A stretch of DNA of 64,000 bases from an uncultured Spirochaetia bacterium. GTDB lineage: Bacteria > Spirochaetota > UBA4802 > UBA5368. The translations under genes were made by a program, and so were the position numbers. Under the pieces are notes generated by a model, which ran no database searches, was not told the DNA's origin, and was given only the letters and a program-made list of their open reading frames with translations. Shown in pieces: positions 51,625 to 64,000 of this stretch (within the stretch, counting starts at the first letter, position 1; the number at the start of each line of letters is the position of its first letter). Where the stretch lies: positions 2,039-66,038 of the forward strand of contig CALEGE010000009.1 in NCBI GenBank assembly GCA_937877025.1, in the 5' to 3' direction.

Positions 51625-52217
51625 ATGGCGACTCGCGGCGCGTACGGCGTGAAAATAGACGGCAAATACCGGTTGAATTATCACCACTTCGATTCGTTTC
51701 CCGAATATCTCGGCAGGGATATATGCAGCCTGATCGCGGAGATAAACCGTGACGGTGGATGGGACGTCTTTACGACGAATTTCAGAAAAGTGGCGCTGGT
51801 ATATCCTGGCGATACCGCCCCCGACGAGCTCGTGCAACGATACAAACATCCCAACGAGGAGGATGACGGAAAAGGGGTCGCCGAATGGTACAACCTTTTA
51901 CGCGGGTTTCAGGGCGCGCGTCTTTTACGGGGGATTTACAAAGGTGTACACCCCTGTAATATTCAAAAACCATTTCTTCGCACTTTCCGGAGGCGTCGGA
52001 TTTTATTCGGGATTCGTACTGTGAATACGCGTACGCCATCAATTGCGACGAAATGGTTTTTGAATATTACAGGGGTGGACAGACCTCGCCCCAGCCCGGC
52101 AATCCCTTCGGTATTACCCCCAACGCCGACGGCTATTATCCATGCAGGCTTGTCGTAAAAATTCCTCTTGCCGACATTGACGAAAACACATTTATGGAAC
52201 TGATCGACAGGGGCTGA
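51625..52217 (+). pseudogene. Frameshifted hypothetical gene of a phage-associated MxTRG...YxHxDxYP-type family
   Basis: N-terminal MATRGAYG...YHHFDSFPEYLG. The family-like C-terminus (PEASDFIRDSYCEYAYAINCD...YYPCRLV...IDRG*) is in the -1 frame from about 51960 to 52217. Confidence 0.65.
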
Positions 52218-53397: not shown

Positions 53398-54966
53398 TCA
53401 GATATTGGCGGGTGTTTTCCGCGTCCGCACACGGATTGCGGCGCTGCCGTGAACGGGGCATTTGTTTTCGCATATGCCGCACCCGATGCACACGGTTTCG
53501 AGCACGAAGGGAAGTTTTACTTTTACCGGCCGGCCTGTTTTGTCGATGATGGTTTCTTCCTTAAGCCTTATTGATTTCATTGCGGTGGGGCATACCTCTT
53601 CGCACACGATGCAGTTGCGGTGCTCCGCCCACGGAATACACAGATCGCGGGTGATGACCGCCGTACCAATGACGGCTGTTTCTTTCTGCGGAACCTCAAG
53701 CGGGCGAAGCGCGCCCGAAGGGCATACCTGCATACAGAGGTTACAGTTTTTTTCGCACCATCCGATTCGCGGGATGAGGCGGGGAGTAAACATCCCCTCG
53801 ATTCCCGATTCCACGAACGTCGGATGCAGGCCGTTCGTTGGACACACCTTCATGCATTCGCCGCAGCGCACGCATAACGAGAGGAATTCACTTTCGGGCA
53901 GCGCGCCCGGCGGTCGTATAACGGCGGAGCTGTCAGCCCTGTATGCCGCGTTCAGCCTGAATGCGGGAACAAGCGTCAGGGCGGTAATTGCCCCGGCAAG
54001 CACATCGCGCCGCGAAAAGCCGGGGCGCACACTTTTACGGGGGTCGCCCCCCGCCTTTTTTTTAAACGCTCTGATAAAGCCGAAACGAATGGCACCGTAT
54101 TCGCACGAGTCGAGGCATTCGAGGCATTGAATGCATTCGACGGGGCTTGTGCCGGTTCCGTCGTCCGAGATCGCGTTCATTCTGCACGCCTTTACGCACC
54201 TGAGACAACGCGTGCATTTCTCCGTGTCGACGATTCGCCTGAAAAAACTGATGCGCGACGATAACGCCAGGATCGCGCCAAGCGGGCACAGCGACTGGCA
54301 CCAGAACCGTCGCATCAGCGACGAGAGCGAAAGCAGCAGAATAAAGAACAGCAAAACCCACAGGTGATTGGCAAAGAGTACGGGGTTATAATCGAGTACG
54401 GAGTCTTTCAGGAACGAAAAGACCGGTTCAGTGATTGCGCCGATCAGCGGGAAGCCGCCGGCAATGGTAAAGACGCCCTTGACAATATAATCGGCGAATG
54501 GATACAAAACCGTGATGTAGCTTCTTGTGGCGAGCGATAGCGGATCGATGATGCCTGCGGCCTGAATGCCCGAAAGAGCCAAAAGCAGCGACACGGCGGC
54601 CAGTATGTATTTATACCGTTTCAGCGATATTGATTTTTCCGCATTTTTTAGCCTGTTCCTTTTTGCCGGATTCCACAGTCTGTCTGAAACATCGAGTGTT
54701 GCGCCGAGGGGGCACAGCCATCCGCAGAAGAGCCTGCCGAATACGGCCGTTGCGAGCACAATAATCGCTCCCGGCAAAAACGCCGAAAGAACCGTTCGCG
54801 CGGAGAACGACGCGGCAATGCCGAGGTGAACGGACATTTGCGGTACGATATCGCTTGCGCCGCCTGCGGGCAGGGGGTCGCGCGTGGCTATAAGCAGCGC
54901 AATAAAGGCAACCCACGCGGCGCATTGAACGGCGGCGCGTACCGTTGACCAGCGCGGGCTGTTCAT
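53398..54966 (-). CDS. Membrane-bound multi-[4Fe-4S] protein (NapH/MauN + MauM-like)
   Basis: FCGWLCPLG, WCQSLCPLG, several CxxCxxCxxxC motifs, RPPGA. Confidence 0.9.
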   Translation of the reverse strand: MNSPRWSTVRAAVQCAAWVAFIALLIATRDPLPAGGASDIVPQMSVHLGIAASFSARTVLSAFLPGAIIVLATAVFGRLFCGWLCPLGATLDVSDRLWNPAKRNRLKNAEKSISLKRYKYILAAVSLLLALSGIQAAGIIDPLSLATRSYITVLYPFADYIVKGVFTIAGGFPLIGAITEPVFSFLKDSVLDYNPVLFANHLWVLLFFILLLSLSSLMRRFWCQSLCPLGAILALSSRISFFRRIVDTEKCTRCLRCVKACRMNAISDDGTGTSPVECIQCLECLDSCEYGAIRFGFIRAFKKKAGGDPRKSVRPGFSRRDVLAGAITALTLVPAFRLNAAYRADSSAVIRPPGALPESEFLSLCVRCGECMKVCPTNGLHPTFVESGIEGMFTPRLIPRIGWCEKNCNLCMQVCPSGALRPLEVPQKETAVIGTAVITRDLCIPWAEHRNCIVCEEVCPTAMKSIRLKEETIIDKTGRPVKVKLPFVLETVCIGCGICENKCPVHGSAAIRVRTRKTPANI

Positions 54967-55913
54967 ACCGAGGCGCGCGTAATTTTCATGCGCGAGGTGT
55001 CGATTTCACCCATGCCCTCTTTCGACGCGAGCGCTAAAAACATTAGGTCGCGGGGTTTCATGCCGAAAAGCGTCGCGGTGAACGCGTCGACGGTGACGGG
55101 ATTCGTGCCGAAGACGATGGTTTTCGTTTCCCTCACGTCGCGCTGCGTGCCGCCGTTTGGCCCGTGACGCAGCAGAATGCGCGTGGCGTCCATGATGACA
55201 AGGTGCACTTTTATCGCCTTGTTGAAGTCGACAATGCTCGAATGGATGTCACCGTGATAGATACCGCGGTTGCCGCCGAGCACGCCCATCAGATTTTTCA
55301 TCGAGAGCGTCAGGGTCGATGATGAATGGTGTTTGGCGACAGGCATGTTGATGACGCAATCGGCGTTCAGTATATCCTCGTATACATGCAGCGTTGAATG
55401 CAGCAGTGCTCCGGGCACGCGCACCGTGCGGAACTTTCTGTCGTCGACAAACACGATATCGGCGCCTGCGTTTTCAGCGGCCTGCCGGATTCCGCTTGCG
55501 CGGTAGGTGAGGCGCGCCGAATTGACGCTTCTGTCGAATATGGTTACGCGGGCTCCTGCGCGTACGCACGTGCGGGCGACGGCCTCGACCATATACGGGT
55601 TTGTGTTATGCGGCATCTCCGGTGACGAGTTCCATCCGATATTGGGCTTGATGACCACATTCATGCCCTTTTTAACGAACCGCCCCACGTCGCCGATTCC
55701 CGCGAACCCCTTTTCGATCATTCTGAAAATGGTATCTTTCGAAATATCGTTCCCCTGAACGACAAAAAGGGAGTCGCCTGTCAGGGGCATGGGCGCTGCC
55801 GCATACAATTTTCGAAATTTGCCTGTTATTAATGGGAGCAAAATATATCCCGCAAGAAGACCCGCCGTGGCGCGGATAAAATCCCGCCGGGGAAGTTTCA
55901 GGTGAAAATTCAT
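54963..55913 (-). CDS. DUF362 domain protein with Tat-like signal
   Basis: RRDFI, VVIKPNIGW, TNP, PVAKHH, SMKNLMG, NPVTVD. Confidence 0.88.
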   Translation of the reverse strand: MNFHLKLPRRDFIRATAGLLAGYILLPLITGKFRKLYAAAPMPLTGDSLFVVQGNDISKDTIFRMIEKGFAGIGDVGRFVKKGMNVVIKPNIGWNSSPEMPHNTNPYMVEAVARTCVRAGARVTIFDRSVNSARLTYRASGIRQAAENAGADIVFVDDRKFRTVRVPGALLHSTLHVYEDILNADCVINMPVAKHHSSSTLTLSMKNLMGVLGGNRGIYHGDIHSSIVDFNKAIKVHLVIMDATRILLRHGPNGGTQRDVRETKTIVFGTNPVTVDAFTATLFGMKPRDLMFLALASKEGMGEIDTSRMKITRASV

Positions 55914-56456
55914 GGCGTATTCCTCCGTACGAATGAACGTCGTCCCCTCAGCGCGCAACGCCCCCCTCAGACCGTCACGTGTGTATCTTCGCGCAATGCG
56001 CCGCTCAAAGCGCGGCAGTACACAACGCCATTGCGGAATTCCACGGCCTGTCCTCGATTCCGTAATGCATAGCAGAGAGGTTTCTTTCAGTATACGCTAT
56101 CCGGCGGGTGGCGTAAACATAAATATTGAATTTGCCCCAGCCGTCACGTGTCAAAAAATAAGTGAAAAATATAAAAAAATGTTGACATATATTTCGAAAG
56201 GCGGCAATAGTATTTTATTGATTGGATGATAAATCAATATATTGGATGTTAAATCAAAATTTGTATACGCAAATAATTACTCATTGAAGGATAAAATTAA
56301 ACTGGTCACGTCCAGGGTGTGCTGGTCGTGATGCAGGCGCGCGAACAGGCGAAGCGCCCTTCATTGAGGAAAGAAAAAACTCGTGAAGTATTGGTTGGAT
56401 GACCAAATAAATATATGGCGGGCGGCCGGTTTGCTGCCCGTGAGGGATGATGCGCA

Positions 56457-57041
56457 ATGCTGTTGAAGGGGTGCCTGCATACGCATACCACATGCTCTGA
56501 CGGCACAATGACGCCGCAACAGGTGGCCGACGCGTATCAGGCGAAGGGATACGATTTCATCGCGTTTACCGATCACGATTATCTCCTCAAATCTGACAGC
56601 ATTGAGCGTTACCGGAGCGTTAAATCGGATATTGTAATACTGACCGGAATTGAGCTCACGGTGTTTATCAAGGGATATGTCCATGTGAGCAGAATTTATG
56701 GAAATGAGGAGCAGTTGCACGTGTTGAATCACCTTGGGGAATACGATCTTGCGATGGAACAGGTGTTAGACAGGATAGCGTGCGCCGCGGCGATGTTTCC
56801 GCTCGACGCGGTGGAAATCACATCGAAGGGATTTCGCGACAGGCGGTATGAAATCCCCGAAATACGGTATCCGAAAATCGCGTCGGACGACTCGCACGCG
56901 TTGGTGGGCATAGGAAGGGCGTGGATTGAGCTTGATGCGCGGCGCGACAAAGACGCGATTCTCAGGGAAATCAAACGCGGGAATTTCTGGAACTGCTATC
57001 TCGGGCAACGTGAGATGACGGGGGGAATAAAACAAATCTGA
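56457..57041 (+). CDS. PHP-family metallohydrolase
   Basis: LHTHTTCSDG, FIAFTDHD, GIE, NH, SDDSH. Confidence 0.85.
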   Translation: MLLKGCLHTHTTCSDGTMTPQQVADAYQAKGYDFIAFTDHDYLLKSDSIERYRSVKSDIVILTGIELTVFIKGYVHVSRIYGNEEQLHVLNHLGEYDLAMEQVLDRIACAAAMFPLDAVEITSKGFRDRRYEIPEIRYPKIASDDSHALVGIGRAWIELDARRDKDAILREIKRGNFWNCYLGQREMTGGIKQI

Positions 57042-57113
57042 TATACACGGCGAAACAAGCATCATGCCGCGCAGCGAAACCGTGCGGCAAAAAAGAGAGG
57101 AGGTCATTGTGTA

Positions 57114-58259
57114 ATGGGTAAACGAGTCGCACTATGCGCTGTGGCGCAAATTAAAAACGAGGGCGACCTCTGGCATGCTCGTTTTCAAAACATGCTCGTC
57201 GGATGCTTTGAATCGATTGTGCAGCAGACCGGGATTACCTTCGACATGGATAACGGCATACGGAACATCATTACCTGTTCCGATGACGTGTTCGATGCGC
57301 GTACAATCTCCGACAACGGCGTGACAGATGTCGTGGGCGCGCAATTCAGGGGCGAGGAAAAAATGGCGCAGGAAAGCATCAACGGCCTCGGCTACGCGAT
57401 GGCATGTATTCTGTCTGGGCATGATGATGTTATTCTGTACATGGGCCATTGCAAGGAATCGCAGGGCGAGAGCCGCGGGATGATAACCAACCTCGCATTC
57501 GATCCGTTCTATTGCAGGCCGCTCGGCCTTGATTTTATGAACGTGAACGCGCTGCAGGCGAGGGAGTACATGCAAAAATCGGGCCTGACCGACGGACACC
57601 TCGCGAAGGTTGTTGTGCGCTCGCGAAAGAACGCCAGAAAAAACCCATTTGCCCGCGACACGAAGGACGTGAGCGAGAACGATGTGATGCAATCGCCGTT
57701 TCTGGCCGACCCGATACGCGAACTGCATTATTACCCCGTTACCGACTGGGCGTACGGCATGCTGCTGTGTTGCGAGGAGCGGGTAAAGGAATTTACCGAC
57801 AGACCGGTGTGGATTACCGGCTACGGTTCGTGCATGGATTCGTACTTCCCCGGCGACAGGGACCTTACATCGAATTTCTCTCTGAAAAACGCGACAGCGC
57901 GCGCCTGCGAAAAAGCTGGCATAAAAAATATCCGAAAAAATATCGGCCTTTTCGAGCTCTGCGATCACGCGGCATATCAGCTTCCCATGTGGGCCGAAGG
58001 CGTCGGTATTGCGGCCGAGGCGAAAGGCGGCGCATGGATCGACAGCGGCGGCATGGACGAGTTCAATGTGAACCTTTCGGGCGGGCAGTTGAACGGGAAT
58101 CCCCTGCTTCTCGGCGGCGCGGCGAGAGCTATCGATTGTTTTTATCAGCTCCGCGGCGAAGCGGGAGGCCGGCAGGTGAAAGGCGTACAGCGCGCCCTCG
58201 CGCACGGCACCTATGGTGCGGCCGGACAGCACCAGGGTGTTGTCATAATGGAAGTATAG
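57114..58259 (+). CDS. Thiolase-fold (SCP-x type) protein, Ltp4-like
   Basis: DPFYCRPL, ALQAR, PFLADPIR, NLSGGQLNGNP, ALAHGTYG. No thiolase Cys or GHP motif. Confidence 0.85.
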   Translation: MGKRVALCAVAQIKNEGDLWHARFQNMLVGCFESIVQQTGITFDMDNGIRNIITCSDDVFDARTISDNGVTDVVGAQFRGEEKMAQESINGLGYAMACILSGHDDVILYMGHCKESQGESRGMITNLAFDPFYCRPLGLDFMNVNALQAREYMQKSGLTDGHLAKVVVRSRKNARKNPFARDTKDVSENDVMQSPFLADPIRELHYYPVTDWAYGMLLCCEERVKEFTDRPVWITGYGSCMDSYFPGDRDLTSNFSLKNATARACEKAGIKNIRKNIGLFELCDHAAYQLPMWAEGVGIAAEAKGGAWIDSGGMDEFNVNLSGGQLNGNPLLLGGAARAIDCFYQLRGEAGGRQVKGVQRALAHGTYGAAGQHQGVVIMEV

Positions 58260-58271
58260 GGAGGCGTATTC

Positions 58272-59471
58272 ATGACACACAGAAAAAAGAACAGGAATGT
58301 CGGCATTATCGGAATAGGCCAGACGAAGTATTCGAGCCACAGGGAAGATGTGAACCAGCCTGAAATGATACATGAAGCGGTTGAAGCGGCGCTCAAAGAC
58401 GCCGGCATCACGATGAAGGATGTCGACTGCGTTGTTCACGGAAACATGGAGCTCTTCGAGATGATACACCAGCCGGACCTTTGGCATACGATCGGCACAG
58501 GGGCGTGCGGCAAGGATTGCATCCGCATTACCACGGGCGGCACCGTCGGTGCGACGATATCGTGCGCGGCCGACAACCTTATTGCGTCGGGCATGTACGA
58601 TATCGTGATGGCGATAGGTTTTGAAAAACTGCAGGAAGGCCATACCACGGGCGGTATCACCAACATGGCCGACGCCCTCTGGTTTCGAAATTTACAGACC
58701 GGCGCGCTTACCGGGTCGAAGGCGTACGATGTTATACGCGAATTCGGGGAAGAGCGGGCGAAGCGGGTATCGATGAAGTACCGTATCATCATGGATAAGC
58801 ACGCGATGCGCAATCCGAAGGCGCACAGGGCCTTCGGCCTCGAATTTGAACAGATGGATAACCTCATTAAAACATCCCCGAAGCTTGTCGGCGACCTGAA
58901 GCTTATAGAGATGTGCTCGCAGTCGGACGGCGCGTGCGTGGTGATCTACGCCTGCGAAAAAAAAGCGAAACAACTTTCGAAAAACCCCGTGTGGATCCGC
59001 GACCACATTACCGTGCATCGCGAAGAGGTGTTCGTTATGTTCGGGTACGACGAAAAATACCCGTTCCCGATGACTCACAGGTTCGCGGCGGAACAGTTGT
59101 ACAAACGCAACGGTATTGACAGCCCGGTCGAATACTTCGACGTGTTCGAAATGTACGATCCCGCGTCATGGTGGGCGGTCGACTGGATTCGCGATTTCTT
59201 CCAGCTTAAAGGCGACGAGCATCTGAAGCTTGTTGAAAACGAGGAGATCATGATCGGCGGGAAGATGCCCATTAATCCGTCGGGCGGCGTTATTGCGTCG
59301 AATCCCATCGGTGCGACCGCGCTTGTGCGCATCGCCGAGGCGGCGCTGCAGATTCGGGGGGATGCGGGCGATCACCAGATCCCGACACCGGTAAGCCACG
59401 CCCTTGCGTCGGGATTCGGCGGAACCATGTGGACGGTGCTTACGATGCTTGAAAAGGAACTCAACTGGTAA
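58272..59471 (+). CDS. Thiolase-fold (SCP-x type) protein, Ltp3-like
   Basis: GIGQTKY, IRITTGGTVGAT, SDGAC, EMYDP, NPSGGVIASNPIGAT. Confidence 0.88.
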   Translation: MTHRKKNRNVGIIGIGQTKYSSHREDVNQPEMIHEAVEAALKDAGITMKDVDCVVHGNMELFEMIHQPDLWHTIGTGACGKDCIRITTGGTVGATISCAADNLIASGMYDIVMAIGFEKLQEGHTTGGITNMADALWFRNLQTGALTGSKAYDVIREFGEERAKRVSMKYRIIMDKHAMRNPKAHRAFGLEFEQMDNLIKTSPKLVGDLKLIEMCSQSDGACVVIYACEKKAKQLSKNPVWIRDHITVHREEVFVMFGYDEKYPFPMTHRFAAEQLYKRNGIDSPVEYFDVFEMYDPASWWAVDWIRDFFQLKGDEHLKLVENEEIMIGGKMPINPSGGVIASNPIGATALVRIAEAALQIRGDAGDHQIPTPVSHALASGFGGTMWTVLTMLEKELNW

Positions 59472-59483
59472 GGGGGGAAGGCG

Positions 59484-60671
59484 ATGAGTGAATATTGGGG
59501 TATAAAGGTAGAGGATATTTTCAACACCATGCCGGAACGATTCCGCCCCGAGGGCGCGAAGGGCGTCAATGCCTGTTTCGGCTATGACATCAAGGGCGAG
59601 GGGAAATGGAAACTGACTGTGGCGAATGAAACCCTGAAGGTTGAAAAAACCGGCGACCTCACCGGGTGCGTATCGGTAATGCTGGCCGATGGCGAGACGT
59701 TTGTGGGCGTGAACACCGGCAAGGTTGACGGCGTGAGCGCCTTTACCTCGGGCAGGGTCACGGTAGAGGGCGATTTCAGCGCCTTTGGAAAAACCGCGAA
59801 GATGTTCAAAAAGTATGTAAACGGCAAAAAAGAGATGAGCACGCGTGACTATATCCTCGACATGTTCGGGACGCTGGTAAGCCGTTTTCAGCCGAACGCG
59901 ATACCGGGGCTTGACGCGAAGGTGTGCTACGACATCGGCGGAAATGACGGCGGTGTGTGGACGGCTATCATTAAGGAAGGAAAATGCGAGCTGGTGGAAG
60001 GAAAGGCCGACAGGCCGACAACGATCCTGCATGTTAACGAAGCGAAGGACTGGGTTGACGTGATGCTTGGTAAATCGGACCCGTTTACGCTGCTTTCCGC
60101 GGGCAGGGCGTCGATCGAGGGCGAAACACAGATTGCCCTGAAGTTAGGGGAAATCTTCGCGAAGTACAAATCGCCCATCCCCGAAGGCGAGCCCGAGCAG
60201 GAGCTTATCGCCCTGAAAAAGGTTATATCGGTCAACCAGCGGTTTGCCACAGGGCCCGTTATGGGAAAATTTCTCAACGCGCTCAAGGAAAAGAAAATTT
60301 ATACAAACAAGTGCCCGAAGTGCGGACGCATTCATCTTCCCGCGCGGGAGGTGTGCGCCGAATGCCGTGTGCGCGCCGACGAATGGCTGGAGGTAGGCCC
60401 CAAAGGGCAGGTGCGTTACATGGAATACGTCTATTACTCGAGCCCCGACCCGCTTACCGGCGAGACGCGCGAAACGCCGTACGGGATGGTGAACATTTTG
60501 CTTGATGGCTGCAAAGGCAACGATACCTTCGCCCACCTCATCCGCCGCGACCAGATCGACAAAATCAAAGGCGGTAACAACGAAGTAGCGGGCACGCGGG
60601 TACGGCCTGTGTGGAACGAGCACCGTGTTGGCAGCATATTCGATATCAAGTATTTCGAAATCGATGAGTAG
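59484..60671 (+). CDS. SCP2-SCP2-DUF35 (Zn-ribbon/OB-fold) fusion protein
   Basis: Two SCP2-like repeats (FRPEGAKGVNACFGYDI; FQPNAIPGLDAKVCYDI), then CPKC...CAEC and the OB fold PYGMVNILLDG. Confidence 0.85.
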   Translation: MSEYWGIKVEDIFNTMPERFRPEGAKGVNACFGYDIKGEGKWKLTVANETLKVEKTGDLTGCVSVMLADGETFVGVNTGKVDGVSAFTSGRVTVEGDFSAFGKTAKMFKKYVNGKKEMSTRDYILDMFGTLVSRFQPNAIPGLDAKVCYDIGGNDGGVWTAIIKEGKCELVEGKADRPTTILHVNEAKDWVDVMLGKSDPFTLLSAGRASIEGETQIALKLGEIFAKYKSPIPEGEPEQELIALKKVISVNQRFATGPVMGKFLNALKEKKIYTNKCPKCGRIHLPAREVCAECRVRADEWLEVGPKGQVRYMEYVYYSSPDPLTGETRETPYGMVNILLDGCKGNDTFAHLIRRDQIDKIKGGNNEVAGTRVRPVWNEHRVGSIFDIKYFEIDE

Positions 60672-60682
60672 GGAGGGTGATG

Positions 60683-62107
60683 ATGAGTTTGAATTATGAA
60701 ACGAATGAATGTTTTACCGTGGAAGGGAAACTTGCGCTCCCCTACACATACTTCGCCGGAAAACTTGGCAGCAGGTTTATAACGACCATCCGCGACCAGA
60801 AAAAGATCATGGGCGTAAAGTGCCCGGCCTGCAACAGGGTGTACATCCCACCCCGCCAGACCTGCGAACGCGACATGACCGACCTTCGCGACGCATGGGT
60901 CGATCTGAAGAACACCGGGGAGGTCGTCAACTTCACGGTTGTCCGCTATAATGACAGGCACCTTCCGAGAAAAGCCCCGTTCGTGCTGGCAATGATAAAG
61001 CTCGATGGCGCCGATACGCCGTTTGCCCACATTCTCGAAGGGATCGAACCCGACAGCGTTAAAATCGGGATGAGGGTGGAAGCGGTATTTGCGAAACAGA
61101 CGACAAATACAATTCTCGACATCGATCATTTTCAGCCAATCAGGGATACAAAGGTATACGTTAAAGAAAGGGCCGGGGACGTTGCGAAACCGGAGGCTCC
61201 GGTAAAAACAAAAAACCAGATGGAAAAGGAGGAAAAAAGAAAAGCCATGTCAAGGAAGGTTATTATAACCGCGGCGCTGGCCGGCGCGGCGACAATGAAG
61301 AACCAGAATCCGGCGGTGCCGTATACGCCGAAAGAATTCGCCGAGGAAGCCGCGCGGTGCTACAAGGCGGGGGCGGCCATGGTGCACGTGCATTCGCGGG
61401 AAGAGAATGGCATGCCGACCCATGAGCATGCGCGCATCAAAGAAACGCACGACGCGATAAAAGACATGACCCCCGAGCTTATCGTCAACCTGAGTTCGGC
61501 GGTCGGCATGGGAAAAACTCCCGAGCAGCGGATCAGCCAGATTATTCACGTGAAGCCCGAAATGGCGTCGCTGAACACGAACACCATGAATTTCAGCATT
61601 GTCGACAGAAAGAGCGGCAAGATCTTCATCGATTTCGTATTCGAGAACACGTTTACGATGCTTCAGGATTTCGGCAAGGCGATGGAAGAAAACGGCGTGA
61701 AGCCCGAGATAGAAATCTATGACATGGGCGGACTCGATAACGTACTCATTATAATGAAGCAGGGCTTTTTCAGCGCGCCGATGAACTTCAACTTCGTATG
61801 GGGCGTGGCGGGCGGCCAGTCGTTCAGGCCTGAATCGTTTATTGCGCTTAAGAATGCGCTGCCCGCGGGCTCTAACTTTACCACCTGCGGCGTTGGTATA
61901 GAGCAGTTCCAGGCGATAACCATGTCGACACTGGTAGGCGGCCATATGCGTGTCGGCCTTGAGGATAACATCCGCATACCGAACGGCGAAATGGCGAAAG
62001 GCAGTTGGGAACAGGTCGAGTGGGCCGTAAGAATCGCGGAGGTGCTTGGCCGCGAGATTGCGACGCCCGACGAGGCTCGTGAAATTATGGGATTAAAGAA
62101 GCGATAG
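60683..62107 (+). CDS. DUF35 fused to a beta-keto acid cleavage enzyme (BKACE/Kce, DUF849)
   Basis: N-terminal CPAC...CERD and PFVLAMIKLDGAD. C-terminal KVIITAALAG, HVHSR, KPEMASLN, RVGLED. Confidence 0.88.
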   Translation: MSLNYETNECFTVEGKLALPYTYFAGKLGSRFITTIRDQKKIMGVKCPACNRVYIPPRQTCERDMTDLRDAWVDLKNTGEVVNFTVVRYNDRHLPRKAPFVLAMIKLDGADTPFAHILEGIEPDSVKIGMRVEAVFAKQTTNTILDIDHFQPIRDTKVYVKERAGDVAKPEAPVKTKNQMEKEEKRKAMSRKVIITAALAGAATMKNQNPAVPYTPKEFAEEAARCYKAGAAMVHVHSREENGMPTHEHARIKETHDAIKDMTPELIVNLSSAVGMGKTPEQRISQIIHVKPEMASLNTNTMNFSIVDRKSGKIFIDFVFENTFTMLQDFGKAMEENGVKPEIEIYDMGGLDNVLIIMKQGFFSAPMNFNFVWGVAGGQSFRPESFIALKNALPAGSNFTTCGVGIEQFQAITMSTLVGGHMRVGLEDNIRIPNGEMAKGSWEQVEWAVRIAEVLGREIATPDEAREIMGLKKR

Positions 62108-62121
62108 TGTGATTGAGCACG

Positions 62122-62183
62122 TACGGGGCGTCACTGTATATCCTGCTCCGGGGAATTCAGGGGACTTTCAGTACAGCCCCGTA
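62122..62183 (+). other. Intra-operon imperfect hairpin
   Basis: TACGGGGC (62122-62129) pairs with GCCCCGTA (62176-62183), with an inner CCTG/CAGG stem. Confidence 0.4.
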
Positions 62184-62217
62184 GCGATTGTTGAATTATC
62201 GAGGAAGAAGATCACTC

Positions 62218-62994
62218 ATGGATAAATGTGCATATGCGGTCGATGAGAAGGGGGTCGCGCTGCTTACGATAAGCAATCCTCCAATGAACGCGCTCGACGA
62301 GCAGACAATGAGGGAATTGGAGGCTTCGCTTATACGCATCGCGTCGGATGACAGTGTCAAGGTTGTGGTGGTGACAGGCGGCGGGCCGACGTTTGTCGTC
62401 GGGGCGGACGTGAACAAGGTGAGAGAAATAAATACCTGCGAGAGCGGGATTGCGACGACGTCCGAGGCGCAGGGGATTATCAACAGAATACAGGATTCGA
62501 GAAAACCGTTTATCGCCGCGATCAACGGATTGTGCCTTGGCGGAGGCACGGAGCTTGCGCTTGCGTGCCATATGCGGATAGCGGGCGATCAGGCGCAGAT
62601 GGGTTTGCCGGAGATATTGCTGGGGATAATGCCCGCGTTCGGCGGCACGCAGCGCGCGGCGCGGCTGCTTGGTCCGTCGCGGGCATTGGAGATTATGCTG
62701 ACGGGAAGGTTTGTCGATATGAGCGATGCCGACCGCATCGGGCTGGTTGACCGTGTGGTGCCGCACGCGGACGTTGTCGCAGAGGCGCAAAAACTTGCGC
62801 GGGGTATTGCGTCGAAAGGGCAGCTCGCGGTGCGGGCGATCGTGGAGGCGGTGATGGACGGCGTGAAGCTTCCCCTGGAGCAAGGGCTGCGGCTTGAGAG
62901 CGCGCTTTTTGGGCGGCTTGCCGCAAGCGAGGACAAGGAGGAGGGAATACGCGCGTTTTTGGAAAAACGCAGGGCAATATTCAAAGACAGATAA
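62218..62994 (+). CDS. Enoyl-CoA hydratase/isomerase (crotonase)
   Basis: PPMNAL, FVVGAD, AAINGLCLGGGTEL, GLPEILLGIMPAFGGTQR; both catalytic Glu present. Confidence 0.93.
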   Translation: MDKCAYAVDEKGVALLTISNPPMNALDEQTMRELEASLIRIASDDSVKVVVVTGGGPTFVVGADVNKVREINTCESGIATTSEAQGIINRIQDSRKPFIAAINGLCLGGGTELALACHMRIAGDQAQMGLPEILLGIMPAFGGTQRAARLLGPSRALEIMLTGRFVDMSDADRIGLVDRVVPHADVVAEAQKLARGIASKGQLAVRAIVEAVMDGVKLPLEQGLRLESALFGRLAASEDKEEGIRAFLEKRRAIFKDR

Positions 62995-63010
62995 AATAAT
63001 TTGGGGGGCT

Positions 63011-64000
63011 ATGGAGAAAACAATAAATGATGTTTTCAGAAATCGCGTAAAAAAATACGGGGACAGGCTCGCCATCGAGAAGAAACGTAAGGGCGCATGG
63101 GAACAGGCGACATGGAATCAGTACTACGGACGGGCGCGGGCTGCCGGTCTGGGCATGATTGCGCTCGGCGTGAAAAAAGGGGACCGGATATCGCTGATGT
63201 CGGAAAACAGGCTTGAGTGGCTTTACACCGACATGGGCGCTCTTGGAATCGGGGCGTGTGTGGTGCCGATATATCCAACACTCATCGCGGAGGAAGTGGA
63301 ATATATCGTCTCTCATTCGGAATCGAAGCTGCTCATCGTCGAAAATAAAACGCAGTACGAAAAAGCCCTCGCTGCGCTGAAAAAATGCCCCAGACTTCAA
63401 ACGATAATCATCATCGATACGGAGGATATCTCACCGCTGCCGAAATTCGCGATGACATTCAACGACATGATGGAACTGGGAAAGGCGGCGTACAACGAAG
63501 ACGCCGGTCTTTTCGAACGGCTTTCAGACGATGTCGGGCTCGACGACCTCGCCACAATTGTGTACACATCCGGCACTACGGGTCCGCCCAAGGGGGCGAT
63601 GATCAGCCATAAAAACATCATGGCGCAGATGCTGGCGCTTTCGAAGGTTACTCCGCCGTACGCGTACGATACCGACAGCACGGTGCCCTTTCTGCCGCTC
63701 AGTCACGTGTTCGAGCGCATCGCCGGGCATTTCTTCGGCATGTATGTCGGGATTACGTCGTCGTACGCCGAGAGCATGGACACGATCGTGCAGGATATTC
63801 AGGAAAAGCGCCCGACGATGATTCTCGCAGTTCCGCGCGTGTGCGAAAAGGTGTTTCAGCGTATCACCATGCAGGTGAAAGAAGAGCCGTTATGGAAACA
63901 GAAGGTCTTTTTCTGGGGCCAGAAGGTGGGGGCCGGAATAAGCGAATACCGCGAGATGAAAAAGAAAATACCGCTGGGGTTGCGGCTGAAATACGCGATA
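63011..64000 (+). CDS. fadD: Long-chain acyl-CoA synthetase (FadD-like), 3' end outside the window
   Basis: Hand translation MEKTINDVFRNRVKKYG..., ENRLEW, IVYTSGTTGPPKGAMISH, LPLSHVFER, VPRVCEK. Confidence 0.93.
   Translation, partial: MEKTINDVFRNRVKKYGDRLAIEKKRKGAWEQATWNQYYGRARAAGLGMIALGVKKGDRISLMSENRLEWLYTDMGALGIGACVVPIYPTLIAEEVEYIVSHSESKLLIVENKTQYEKALAALKKCPRLQTIIIIDTEDISPLPKFAMTFNDMMELGKAAYNEDAGLFERLSDDVGLDDLATIVYTSGTTGPPKGAMISHKNIMAQMLALSKVTPPYAYDTDSTVPFLPLSHVFERIAGHFFGMYVGITSSYAESMDTIVQDIQEKRPTMILAVPRVCEKVFQRITMQVKEEPLWKQKVFFWGQKVGAGISEYREMKKKIPLGLRLKYAI

Follow-up and report, generated by a model that had tools for sequence, protein, structure and literature searches.

Ltp3 and Ltp4 (Rv3523 and Rv3522) are two adjacent SCP-x-type thiolase-fold subunits that lack the nucleophilic cysteine and are accompanied by two DUF35 modules, carried by a tandem DUF35 protein (Rv3521). 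Their genes lie beside echA19 and fadD19. Ltp3-Ltp4 is the genetically defined aldol-lyase for the C24-branched side chains of sterols, and the requirement for Ltp3 in their degradation is a genetic phenotype in Rhodococcus (Wilbrink 2012, as cited in PMC10398937 and reviewed in PMC6678751). In the scheme drawn for these sterols, the substrate is desaturated, carboxylated on its branch, and hydrated before Ltp3-Ltp4 cleaves it in a retro-aldol reaction, which releases propionyl-CoA and leaves a β-keto acid still needing thioesterification (PMC3546705; PMC6678751). The complexes ChsH1-ChsH2(DUF35)-Ltp2 (6OK1) and Shy(DUF35)-Sal (PMC12329534) also contain Cys-less thiolase-fold aldolases, which have a catalytic tyrosine and are stabilized by DUF35. 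Here, we describe a related locus present at positions 56457-64000 of a 64,000-nucleotide stretch of DNA (the window) from an uncultured Spirochaetia bacterium (contig CALEGE010000009.1). This region is the 5' third of an operon of approximately 21 kb and 20 genes, which encodes two pairs of thiolase-fold proteins, designated ThlA/ThlB and ThlC/ThlD, together with DUF35 adaptors, one of which is fused to a BKACE domain. We consider it moderately probable that the operon specifies an aldolytic route resembling β-oxidation for a bulky or β-branched acid, in which the tethered BKACE would yield a shorter acyl-CoA and acetoacetate.

The seven genes of the window (Table 1) have the order and the domains of the original prediction, as judged from open reading frames (ORFs) and from Pfam and NCBIfam matches, and genes 2 to 5 are separated by gaps of 11-12 nt. 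The genes located downstream from the window were rebuilt from contigs encoding identical ThlB and ThlC proteins, with few substitutions relative to the window. The ligase gene is followed by genes for a CoA-transferase (336 and 256 residues), a free DUF35 protein (158 residues), ThlC (381 residues), ThlD (387 residues), and a second free DUF35 protein (154 residues). Then come genes for a PP2C-like protein (286 residues), a TetR regulator, two acyl-CoA dehydrogenases (ACADs), a split MaoC hydratase, and a member of the histone-deacetylase family.

A scan of one genome per species revealed at least 80 species-level loci, all in metagenome-assembled genomes (MAGs). As determined by tblastn with the operon proteins, gene order was alike in nearly all 80 loci: PHP, ThlA, ThlB, SCP2x2-DUF35, DUF35-BKACE, (crotonase), ligase, (CoA-transferase), DUF35, ThlC, ThlD, DUF35, PP2C-like, TetR, ACAD, ACAD, and the MaoC pair. 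Recurrence of this order in 80 species-level genomes places the arrangement far beyond chance. The PHP gene was the first in 61 of the 80 loci. The crotonase gene is optional (44/80) and is missing in most Smithella-type copies; the gene for the CoA-transferase α subunit was present in 57/80, the pair being absent from some full-length loci, and both counts are also limited by the length of the flanks. Some spirochaete MAGs carry a minimal second copy comprising only ThlA, ThlB, the SCP2 adaptor, the BKACE fusion, and two ACADs. For the DUF35-BKACE fusion, dozens of relatives were found at 68-80% identity.

The hosts are mostly Spirochaetota, many of them labelled Leptospirales, and members of Smithella, Smithellaceae, or Syntrophaceae, with some Desulfomonilia and one Chloroflexota. 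Copies from Spirochaetota and from Smithellaceae or Syntrophaceae (L019-L098) are 81-89% identical for ThlB, 80-89% for ThlD, and 86-92% for the CoA-transferase β subunit. Such identities between phyla suggest recent lateral transfer of the whole operon. The window sequence is present in many sludge and digester metagenomes, and the operon copies closest to it bear the labels Spirochaetes or Leptospirales, in agreement with the anticipated anaerobic spirochaetal host; the other hosts include MAGs from peat, fen, and deep groundwater. Beyond the end of the operon lie convergent genes for rubrerythrin and desulfoferrodoxin, which are typical of anaerobes.

Relationship of ThlA-ThlD to Ltp4 and Ltp3

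A reference pair was taken from a Tsukamurella tyrosinosolvens record obtained by tblastn of plasmid-labelled records. This locus encodes a crotonase, a ligase, a tandem-DUF35 protein, two thiolase-domain proteins, a P450, and a steroid thiolase. Its Ltp4 scored 593 bits on PRK07937 (NF005924; Rv3522; cut-off 419), its Ltp3 734 bits on PRK08313 (NF006180; Rv3523; cut-off 514), and its crotonase 428 bits on the EchA19 model (cut-off 400). The second reference pair came from a 49 kb region of Nocardia farcinica, in which Ltp4, Ltp3, and FadA5 were present and Ltp2 was not found.

A maximum-likelihood tree (LG+C20, PMSF) was built with these pairs, FadA5-type thiolases, BbsB, an SCP2-thiolase, two archaeal-type thiolases, and relatives from Cupriavidus and Rhodococcus, Ltp2 and Sal being left out. 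ThlA and ThlC fell inside the Ltp4 clade (support 97/97), and ThlB and ThlD inside the Ltp3 clade (99/99). The two clades were sisters (joint support 100/99), and the Ltp4 stem branch was long (1.45). Constraining ThlA-ThlD to group with the Cys thiolases (BbsB, SCP2-thiolase, and archaeal thiolases) changed the likelihood by -95.5 log-likelihood units and was rejected (p-AU 9e-5). In both pairs the Ltp4-type gene lies directly upstream from the Ltp3-type gene, as in the ltp4-ltp3 arrangement. The Ltp2 complex 6OK1 was a weaker sequence match than Cys thiolases, and ThlA scored 174 bits on PRK06066. None of the four proteins comes near its curated cut-off, and relatives of the Ltp3 type and Ltp4 type is a better name for them than orthologues. 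The match with Ltp4 and Ltp3 made in the original prediction stands for the clades and motifs, and does not extend to the cut-offs of the family models.

The active-site residues were identified by alignment with solved Cys thiolases. ThlB has Gly at the site of the Cys nucleophile, YDPA at the position of the HDCF motif, and SNP at that of GHP. ThlA has Ser or Met at the nucleophile site, depending on the alignment, together with CDHA and GNP. The corresponding residues are G, YDAF, and GHP in ThlC and G, YQPY, and CNP in ThlD. Hence the Cys nucleophile is missing in all four proteins, and the His of GHP is kept in ThlC alone. The Cys loss, the (G/S)NP motifs, and the YDP of ThlB were all part of the original prediction and are confirmed by these alignments. 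The Tsukamurella proteins read E, HAPF, and GNP (Ltp4) and G, YVPF, and SNP (Ltp3). Thus, ThlA shares GNP with the Ltp4 type, and ThlB and ThlD have the pattern Gly / Y-x-P / x-N-P in common with Ltp3.

The catalytic base of the aldolases TcLtp2 and CtSal is the Tyr that opens their equivalents of the HDCF motif, YDHF and YDCY, respectively (PMC12329534). Among 67 ThlB sequences, T87-T-G-G-T91, F292-E-M-Y-D-P297 (including Y295 and D296), W300, and N344-P345 were all invariant. Y283-Q-P-Y-S and N332 were kept in 51 ThlD sequences. In ThlC, Y278 was present in 46 of 52 sequences and H327 was kept. The active-site positions of ThlA varied among 65 homologues (Ser, Cys, or Met; His, Gln, or Ala). 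Because the Tyr is invariant in ThlB and ThlD and the ThlA sites vary, the Ltp3-type subunits are likely to be the catalytic aldolase subunits, and ThlA is probably a degenerate, non-catalytic partner. The third residue of the HDCF-equivalent motif is Pro (ThlB and ThlD) or Ala, versus His in Ltp2 and Cys in Sal.

Paralogous modules and DUF35 adaptors fused to SCP2 and BKACE domains

ThlA and ThlC are 37% identical, ThlB and ThlD 39%. Among the adaptors, the BKACE-fused DUF35 is 42% identical to the first free DUF35 protein, and the SCP2-fused DUF35 (C-terminal 144 residues) is 36% identical to the second. These relationships indicate that the window contains one copy of a duplicated module of two subunits and two adaptors, with an extra domain having been added to each adaptor. 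We infer that the operon encodes two paralogous C-C-cleaving complexes of the Ltp4/Ltp3 type, A/B and C/D, each comprising a heterodimer and two DUF35 adaptors. The adaptors are free proteins in the complex encoded downstream from the window and fusions, with SCP2x2 and with BKACE, in the complex encoded within it. The unfused DUF35-ThlC-ThlD-DUF35 set is the closer counterpart of Rv3521-Ltp4-Ltp3. The original prediction had the double DUF35 split and each half fused to a new partner; the presence of this second, unfused set indicates instead that the fused adaptors stem from duplication of a DUF35 pair that was already split.

The zinc ribbon of the SCP2 fusion has four Cys, invariant in 72 sequences. 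That of the BKACE fusion, which is followed by an OB fold, is formed by C47, C50, C61, and D64 (Cys in 16 sequences), a Cys3-Asp ribbon also found in the C-terminal DUF35 of the Tsukamurella tandem protein. The Ltp3-Ltp4 locus resembles the present one in having a crotonase and an acyl-CoA ligase nearby. In contrast to that locus, to which identity is 30-40%, the DUF35 modules are here borne by separate genes, two of them as fusions, the thiolase-fold pair occurs twice, neither the crotonase nor the ligase has its orthologue there, and the host is a strict anaerobe without steroid genes. The Ltp2 and Sal systems share with the operon the ACAD pair and the split MaoC hydratase. Their complexes are homodimeric, whereas ThlA/B and ThlC/D look heteromeric, and their DUF35 is fused to the hydratase, whereas MaoC_N and MaoC_C lack DUF35 here, DUF35 being free or attached to SCP2 or BKACE. 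A biosynthetic complex in which DUF35 joins two Cys-using enzymes passing on a CoA-bound intermediate offers a model for a hand-over from aldolase to BKACE, although it contains neither BKACE nor SCP2 and its thiolase lies outside the Ltp3/Ltp4 clade.

Plasmid p1 of Cupriavidus necator (L017 7557-17086), an aerobic betaproteobacterium, also encodes proteins resembling ThlC and ThlD (42% and 36% identity), with two free DUF35 genes after them and flanking genes for crotonases and acyl-CoA ligases, in a non-steroid context. The distribution of the basic module thus extends far outside the anaerobes and the actinobacteria.

Enzymes of the BKACE family convert a β-keto acid and acetyl-CoA into an acyl-CoA and acetoacetate. 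The BKACE domain of the fusion covers the entire Pfam profile (PF05853, 1-274 of 274) with 313.7 bits against a gathering score of 24.8, and the metal site HxH...E (H235, H237, and E427) is invariant in 80 sequences. It could be aligned over its whole length with Kce 2Y7D (E 7e-50), relative to which it has an 11-residue insertion, and scored 281.5 bits on the Kce equivalog model (NCBIfam NF052387), below the cut-off of 382. Kce and the present BKACE (DUF849) are alike in the full TIM barrel, the Zn site, and a neighbouring CoA-transferase for acetoacetate, and differ in the fusion of the latter to DUF35. The lysine-fermentation genes kam, kdd, and kal were not found near the operon in near-identical contigs. 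Our literature search returned no paper combining BKACE with DUF35.

The CoA-transferase is of the glutaconate type (GctAB): its subunits matched chains A and B of 1POI with E values of 1e-35 and 4.5e-45, respectively, and the catalytic Glu is invariant. Two other assignments were rejected, IpdAB because the GctAB match was much stronger, and an AibAB-type decarboxylase/carboxylase because the Glu missing from AibB is invariant here.

Two variant loci bear on the partners of BKACE. In a Desulfobacteraceae MAG (GCA_014237275.1, L011 6238-14574), an unfused BKACE (77% identity) and the same CoA-transferase pair (58% and 69%) are encoded right after a glycyl radical enzyme of 1008 residues, its activase, and a member of the 3-beta-HSD/epimerase family. 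This locus is a different, likewise uncharacterised pathway that shares the BKACE-transferase unit. The occurrence of both enzymes in an unrelated locus suggests that they work together as a unit, the substrate of which is probably acetoacetate. In the Chloroflexota MAG (L097 284-13281), DUF35 and BKACE are encoded by separate, adjacent ORFs after a ThlC/ThlD-like pair, with genes for a Cys-type thiolase, a GNAT protein, and an aldehyde:ferredoxin oxidoreductase nearby. The adjacency of the two ORFs supports a functional link between the parts that are fused in the window.

The fusion gene contains a Shine-Dalgarno-like GGAGG (61228-61232) and, 14 nt away, where the BKACE domain begins, an in-frame ATG (61247). 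An in-frame ATG was found at this place in 78 of 80 related loci, 61 of which also had GGAGG at -21 to -5, mostly at a distance of 6 or 10 nt, for a background rate of 1.7% of windows. Both elements are kept despite differences in the amino acid sequence of the linker. This conservation suggests that free BKACE is also made.

A proposed aldolytic route and its alternatives

From the sequences alone, we infer complex formation, aldolase activity, channelling, the substrate class, and the following order of reactions. A lipophilic acid, β-branched or bulky, would be activated by the long-chain ligase or by the GctAB-type CoA-transferase. The ACADs would desaturate the acyl-CoA, and the split MaoC hydratase or the crotonase would hydrate it to a 3-hydroxyacyl-CoA that could not be oxidized, as no dehydrogenase is encoded. 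The Ltp3-type subunit, using its Tyr as a base, would then catalyze a retro-aldol reaction producing acetyl-CoA or propionyl-CoA and a carbonyl product. If the branch carried a carboxyl group, in a substrate of the 3-hydroxy-3-alkylglutaryl-CoA type (compare the Ltp3/Ltp4 scheme), this product would be a free β-keto acid. The tethered BKACE would combine the β-keto acid with the acetyl-CoA just released to form the shortened acyl-CoA and acetoacetate, without ATP or a thiolase, and the CoA-transferase would activate the acetoacetate. The SCP2 domains would hold the hydrophobic tail. The original prediction had left BKACE without a role; the one given here is proposed because the β-keto acid left by Ltp3-Ltp4 needs a thioester, which BKACE would provide without consuming ATP.

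Within the full operon, as read from near-identical contigs, neither a 3-hydroxyacyl-CoA dehydrogenase nor a Cys thiolase is encoded. Together with the invariant Tyr of ThlB, this is consistent with the predicted aldolase-type chemistry, which we retain. The two adjacent ACADs (L007 14488-16831) belong to an enzyme class for which inspection of the downstream contig had been advised. In ACAD1, the site of the MCAD-type catalytic Glu reads GGGT and the IVD/LCAD-type position reads W-D-R, both without variation; the GEGT of ACAD2 is canonical. By analogy with ChsE1-ChsE2, they may form a heteromeric ACAD. The MaoC_C subunit of the split hydratase carries the hydratase motif SGDFNPIH, and the ACAD pair and split MaoC together resemble the heteromeric enzymes acting on bulky steroid side chains.

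A precedent for passing a blocked β-carbon is offered by an anaerobic limonene route, in which a 3-substituted glutaryl-CoA is processed via a tertiary alcohol by a lyase of the thiolase superfamily (PMC12583861). The Atu/Liu and Lrc limonene routes (PMC12583861) are alike in that a tertiary alcohol is formed on a 3-substituted glutaryl-CoA before a lyase acts. They differ in the lyase families (HMG-CoA-lyase or HMGCS-like), in the absence of BKACE, and in that the 3-oxoacyl part stays a CoA ester or a biotin carboxylase is present in the cluster. Our best guess for the substrate is a bulky, β-branched or carboxy-branched lipophilic acid. Straight-chain fatty-acid β-oxidation via aldol cleavage was rejected on energetic grounds, since the energy of the thioester would presumably be lost in each cycle. 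More tentatively, and as a possibility that we rate well below an even chance, ThlA/ThlB, the SCP2-SCP2-DUF35 protein, and DUF35-BKACE could constitute a single CoA-recycling lyase-transacylase machine operating without ATP, free CoA, a thiolase, or oxygen, and providing with C/D an undescribed form of aldolytic β-oxidation. Such a machine would split a lipophilic tertiary alcohol of the 3-hydroxy-3-alkylglutaryl-CoA type by a Tyr-dependent retro-aldol step and pass both acetyl-CoA and the β-keto acid on to BKACE.

Several points weigh against the aldolytic route. To our knowledge, Ltp3 and Ltp4 are themselves known only from genetics. ThlB (268.6 bits) and ThlD (353 bits) do not reach the cut-off of the Ltp3 model (514), nor ThlA (143.9 bits) and ThlC (191.3 bits) that of the Ltp4 model (419). 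No general acid is obvious in ThlB and ThlD, the third motif residue being Pro. No carboxylase that could provide a carboxylated branch, and for which downstream inspection had been advised, was found in the operon or its 20 kb flanks. The PHP phosphoesterase, despite its invariant metal ligands, and the PP2C-like protein have no role in the scheme. Finally, metatranscriptome run X27 contains a contig spanning 56232-63609 with a depth twice that of the upstream contig, and metatranscriptome runs carry the locus as contigs of 26-41 kb with flat depth; this evidence is weak and transcription is not proven, because the runs also hold long, DNA-like contigs.

The readings that compete with this route differ in how much of the operon they explain. 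One of them, a narrower form of the original prediction, assigns the genes to anaerobic breakdown of sterol or bile-acid side chains by a version of the actinobacterial C24-branched pathway. The placement of A/B and C/D in the Ltp4 and Ltp3 clades, the similarity of the split MaoC and the ACAD pair, one member of which lacks the MCAD-type Glu, to ChsH1/ChsH2 and ChsE1/ChsE2, the TetR and SCP2 domains, and the richness of digester sludge in sterols would all fit. However, the crotonase scored 205.4 bits on the EchA19 model (NCBIfam NF051848; cut-off 400) and is 31% identical to Tsukamurella EchA19; the ligase, whose best NCBIfam matches (long-chain-fatty-acid-CoA ligase and FadD11 type) are both below cut-off, is 24% identical to FadD19. 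Neither is an orthologue. KstD, 3-beta-HSD, Cyp125, and a Mo-hydroxylase are absent from the operon and its flanks, and the CoA-transferase resembles GctAB rather than IpdAB. The hosts include Smithella and MAGs from peat, fen, and deep groundwater, for which sterols are no obvious substrate, and the C/D-like module of Cupriavidus stands in a non-steroid context. Because the crotonase and ligase are not orthologous, steroid genes are lacking, and hosts and habitats are broad, the steroid assignment is not supported, and we consider this reading improbable. Ordinary thiolytic β-oxidation of aromatic or alkyl-succinate-type substrates is far less probable still. It could be imagined from the resemblance of a DUF35 protein and an SCP-x-type thiolase fold to BbsAB and from the hydrocarbon- and fatty-acid-degrading habits of Smithella hosts. 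It is contradicted by the loss of the Cys nucleophile from all of ThlA-ThlD, by scores of 64-166 bits for these proteins on the BbsB hidden Markov model (cut-off 750), by the operon's lack of a 3-hydroxyacyl-CoA dehydrogenase, and by rejection of the grouping with BbsB and Cys thiolases, a grouping that would have overturned the Ltp-type assignment.

Two other explanations concern the thiolase-fold pairs and BKACE themselves. The pairs could be non-catalytic scaffolds or perform other chemistry, such as hydrolysis or CoA-independent acyl transfer in the manner of PhlACB, the work being done by BKACE, the ACADs, and the hydratases. The variable active-site positions of ThlA, the lack of an evident general acid in ThlB and ThlD, the presence of PhlC-type proteins among the distant PDB matches, and the varied chemistries hosted by DUF35 complexes in general are compatible with this view. 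The PhlC Cys is nonetheless absent from ThlA-ThlD, which share clades with the genetically defined aldol-lyases Ltp3 and Ltp4, and the Tyr, Asn-Pro, and Gly-rich loop of ThlB and ThlD are invariant across phyla, which argues for a conserved active site rather than a scaffold. We regard this explanation as unlikely. We also see only a small chance that the reactions proceed in the reverse order with catalytic CoA, BKACE acting first on a 5-hydroxy-3-oxo acid to give acetoacetate and a 3-hydroxyacyl-CoA, from which A/B would form an aldehyde and acetyl-CoA returning to BKACE. A 5-hydroxy-3-oxo acid is the oxygen analogue of the substrate of the lysine-fermentation enzyme Kce, the closest relative of BKACE, the DUF35 tether would suit recycling of acetyl-CoA in either direction, and an aldehyde:ferredoxin oxidoreductase is encoded beside the Chloroflexota variant. 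This order leaves the ACADs, the hydratases, and the second aldolase complex unaccounted for; moreover, an aldehyde-oxidizing enzyme was not found in the 80 main loci, and the Kce score is below the cut-off.

If the CoA-recycling machine exists, strict anaerobes such as Smithella and Leptospirales-like spirochaetes could, in digesters, peat, and the subsurface, use it to strip isoprenoid or sterol-like lipids of their β-branches, and the missing β-keto-acid step of the Ltp3/Ltp4 pathway would be identified. The host range includes Smithella and Syntrophaceae, key syntrophs of digesters and hydrocarbon-degrading communities, in which anaerobic degradation of β-branched or bulky lipids is poorly understood. 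Docking of BKACE to an aldolase via DUF35 would be a new case of adaptor-mediated channelling, with ATP-free reactivation of a β-keto acid. The fused BKACE and SCP2 domains hint at the products and substrates of Ltp3/Ltp4-type enzymes and make their mechanism testable.

Gene calls, signals and neighbouring genes

Table 1. Promoter-like site and genes of the operon within the window.
Feature	Position	Strand	Basis
Promoter-like site TTGACA-18-AATAGT	56182..56211	+	Consensus scan 10/12; in 498-nt gap after divergent DUF362 gene
PHP-family metal phosphoesterase, 194 aa	56457..57041	+	Pfam PHP 35.5 bits, PHP_C 25.1 bits
ThlA, Ltp4-type Cys-less thiolase-fold subunit, 381 aa	57114..58259	+	Sole Pfam match Thiolase_C_1
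ThlB, Ltp3-type Cys-less thiolase-fold subunit, 399 aa	58272..59471	+	Best NCBIfam match PRK08313
SCP2 (two stretches) and zf-ChsH2 (four-Cys DUF35 adaptor), 395 aa	59484..60671	+	Pfam
DUF35 (~1-150), Lys/Glu-rich linker, and BKACE (~189-474)	60683..62107	+	BKACE 313.7 bits, OB_ChsH2_C 54.9 bits, zf-ChsH2
Crotonase-family enoyl-CoA hydratase, 258 aa	62218..62994	+	Pfam ECH_1 214.8 bits
Long-chain-type acyl-CoA ligase, runs off the window end	63011..64000	+	Pfam AMP-binding 201 bits

Gene callers place the start of DUF35-BKACE at ATG 60683 (474 residues) and do not use GTG 60677; an exact look-up of the 476-residue GTG-start form gave no match. The called start of the crotonase is 62218, not 62188. 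The full-length ligase has 606 residues in two identical contigs (L001 and L007). The putative metal ligands of the PHP protein (H8, H10, D15, H40, E66, H92, D144/D145, and H147) were invariant in 60 homologues. The PP2C-like protein (L007 12865-13725) matched SpoIIE/PP2C with 22 bits, below the cut-off, and was 31-51% identical across loci. A search for inverted repeats that could serve as a TetR operator found none.

In this lineage, the end of the MaoC gene is overlapped by that for the histone-deacetylase-family amidohydrolase (L007 17749-18693); none of the 80 related loci revealed the latter, but their 10-kb flanks rarely reach beyond the MaoC pair. Divergent from the operon (53398-55958, - strand), the window encodes a DUF362 protein and a membrane polyferredoxin of 522 residues (Fer4_5 and several 4Fe-4S motifs), an adjacency that is not kept in the Deltaproteobacteria copy. 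Public runs revealed two strain-level indels, the absence of approximately 26 nt around 51947-51976 and a 10-nt insertion (TCAAGGGGTC) after 63001, in the gap between the crotonase and ligase genes.

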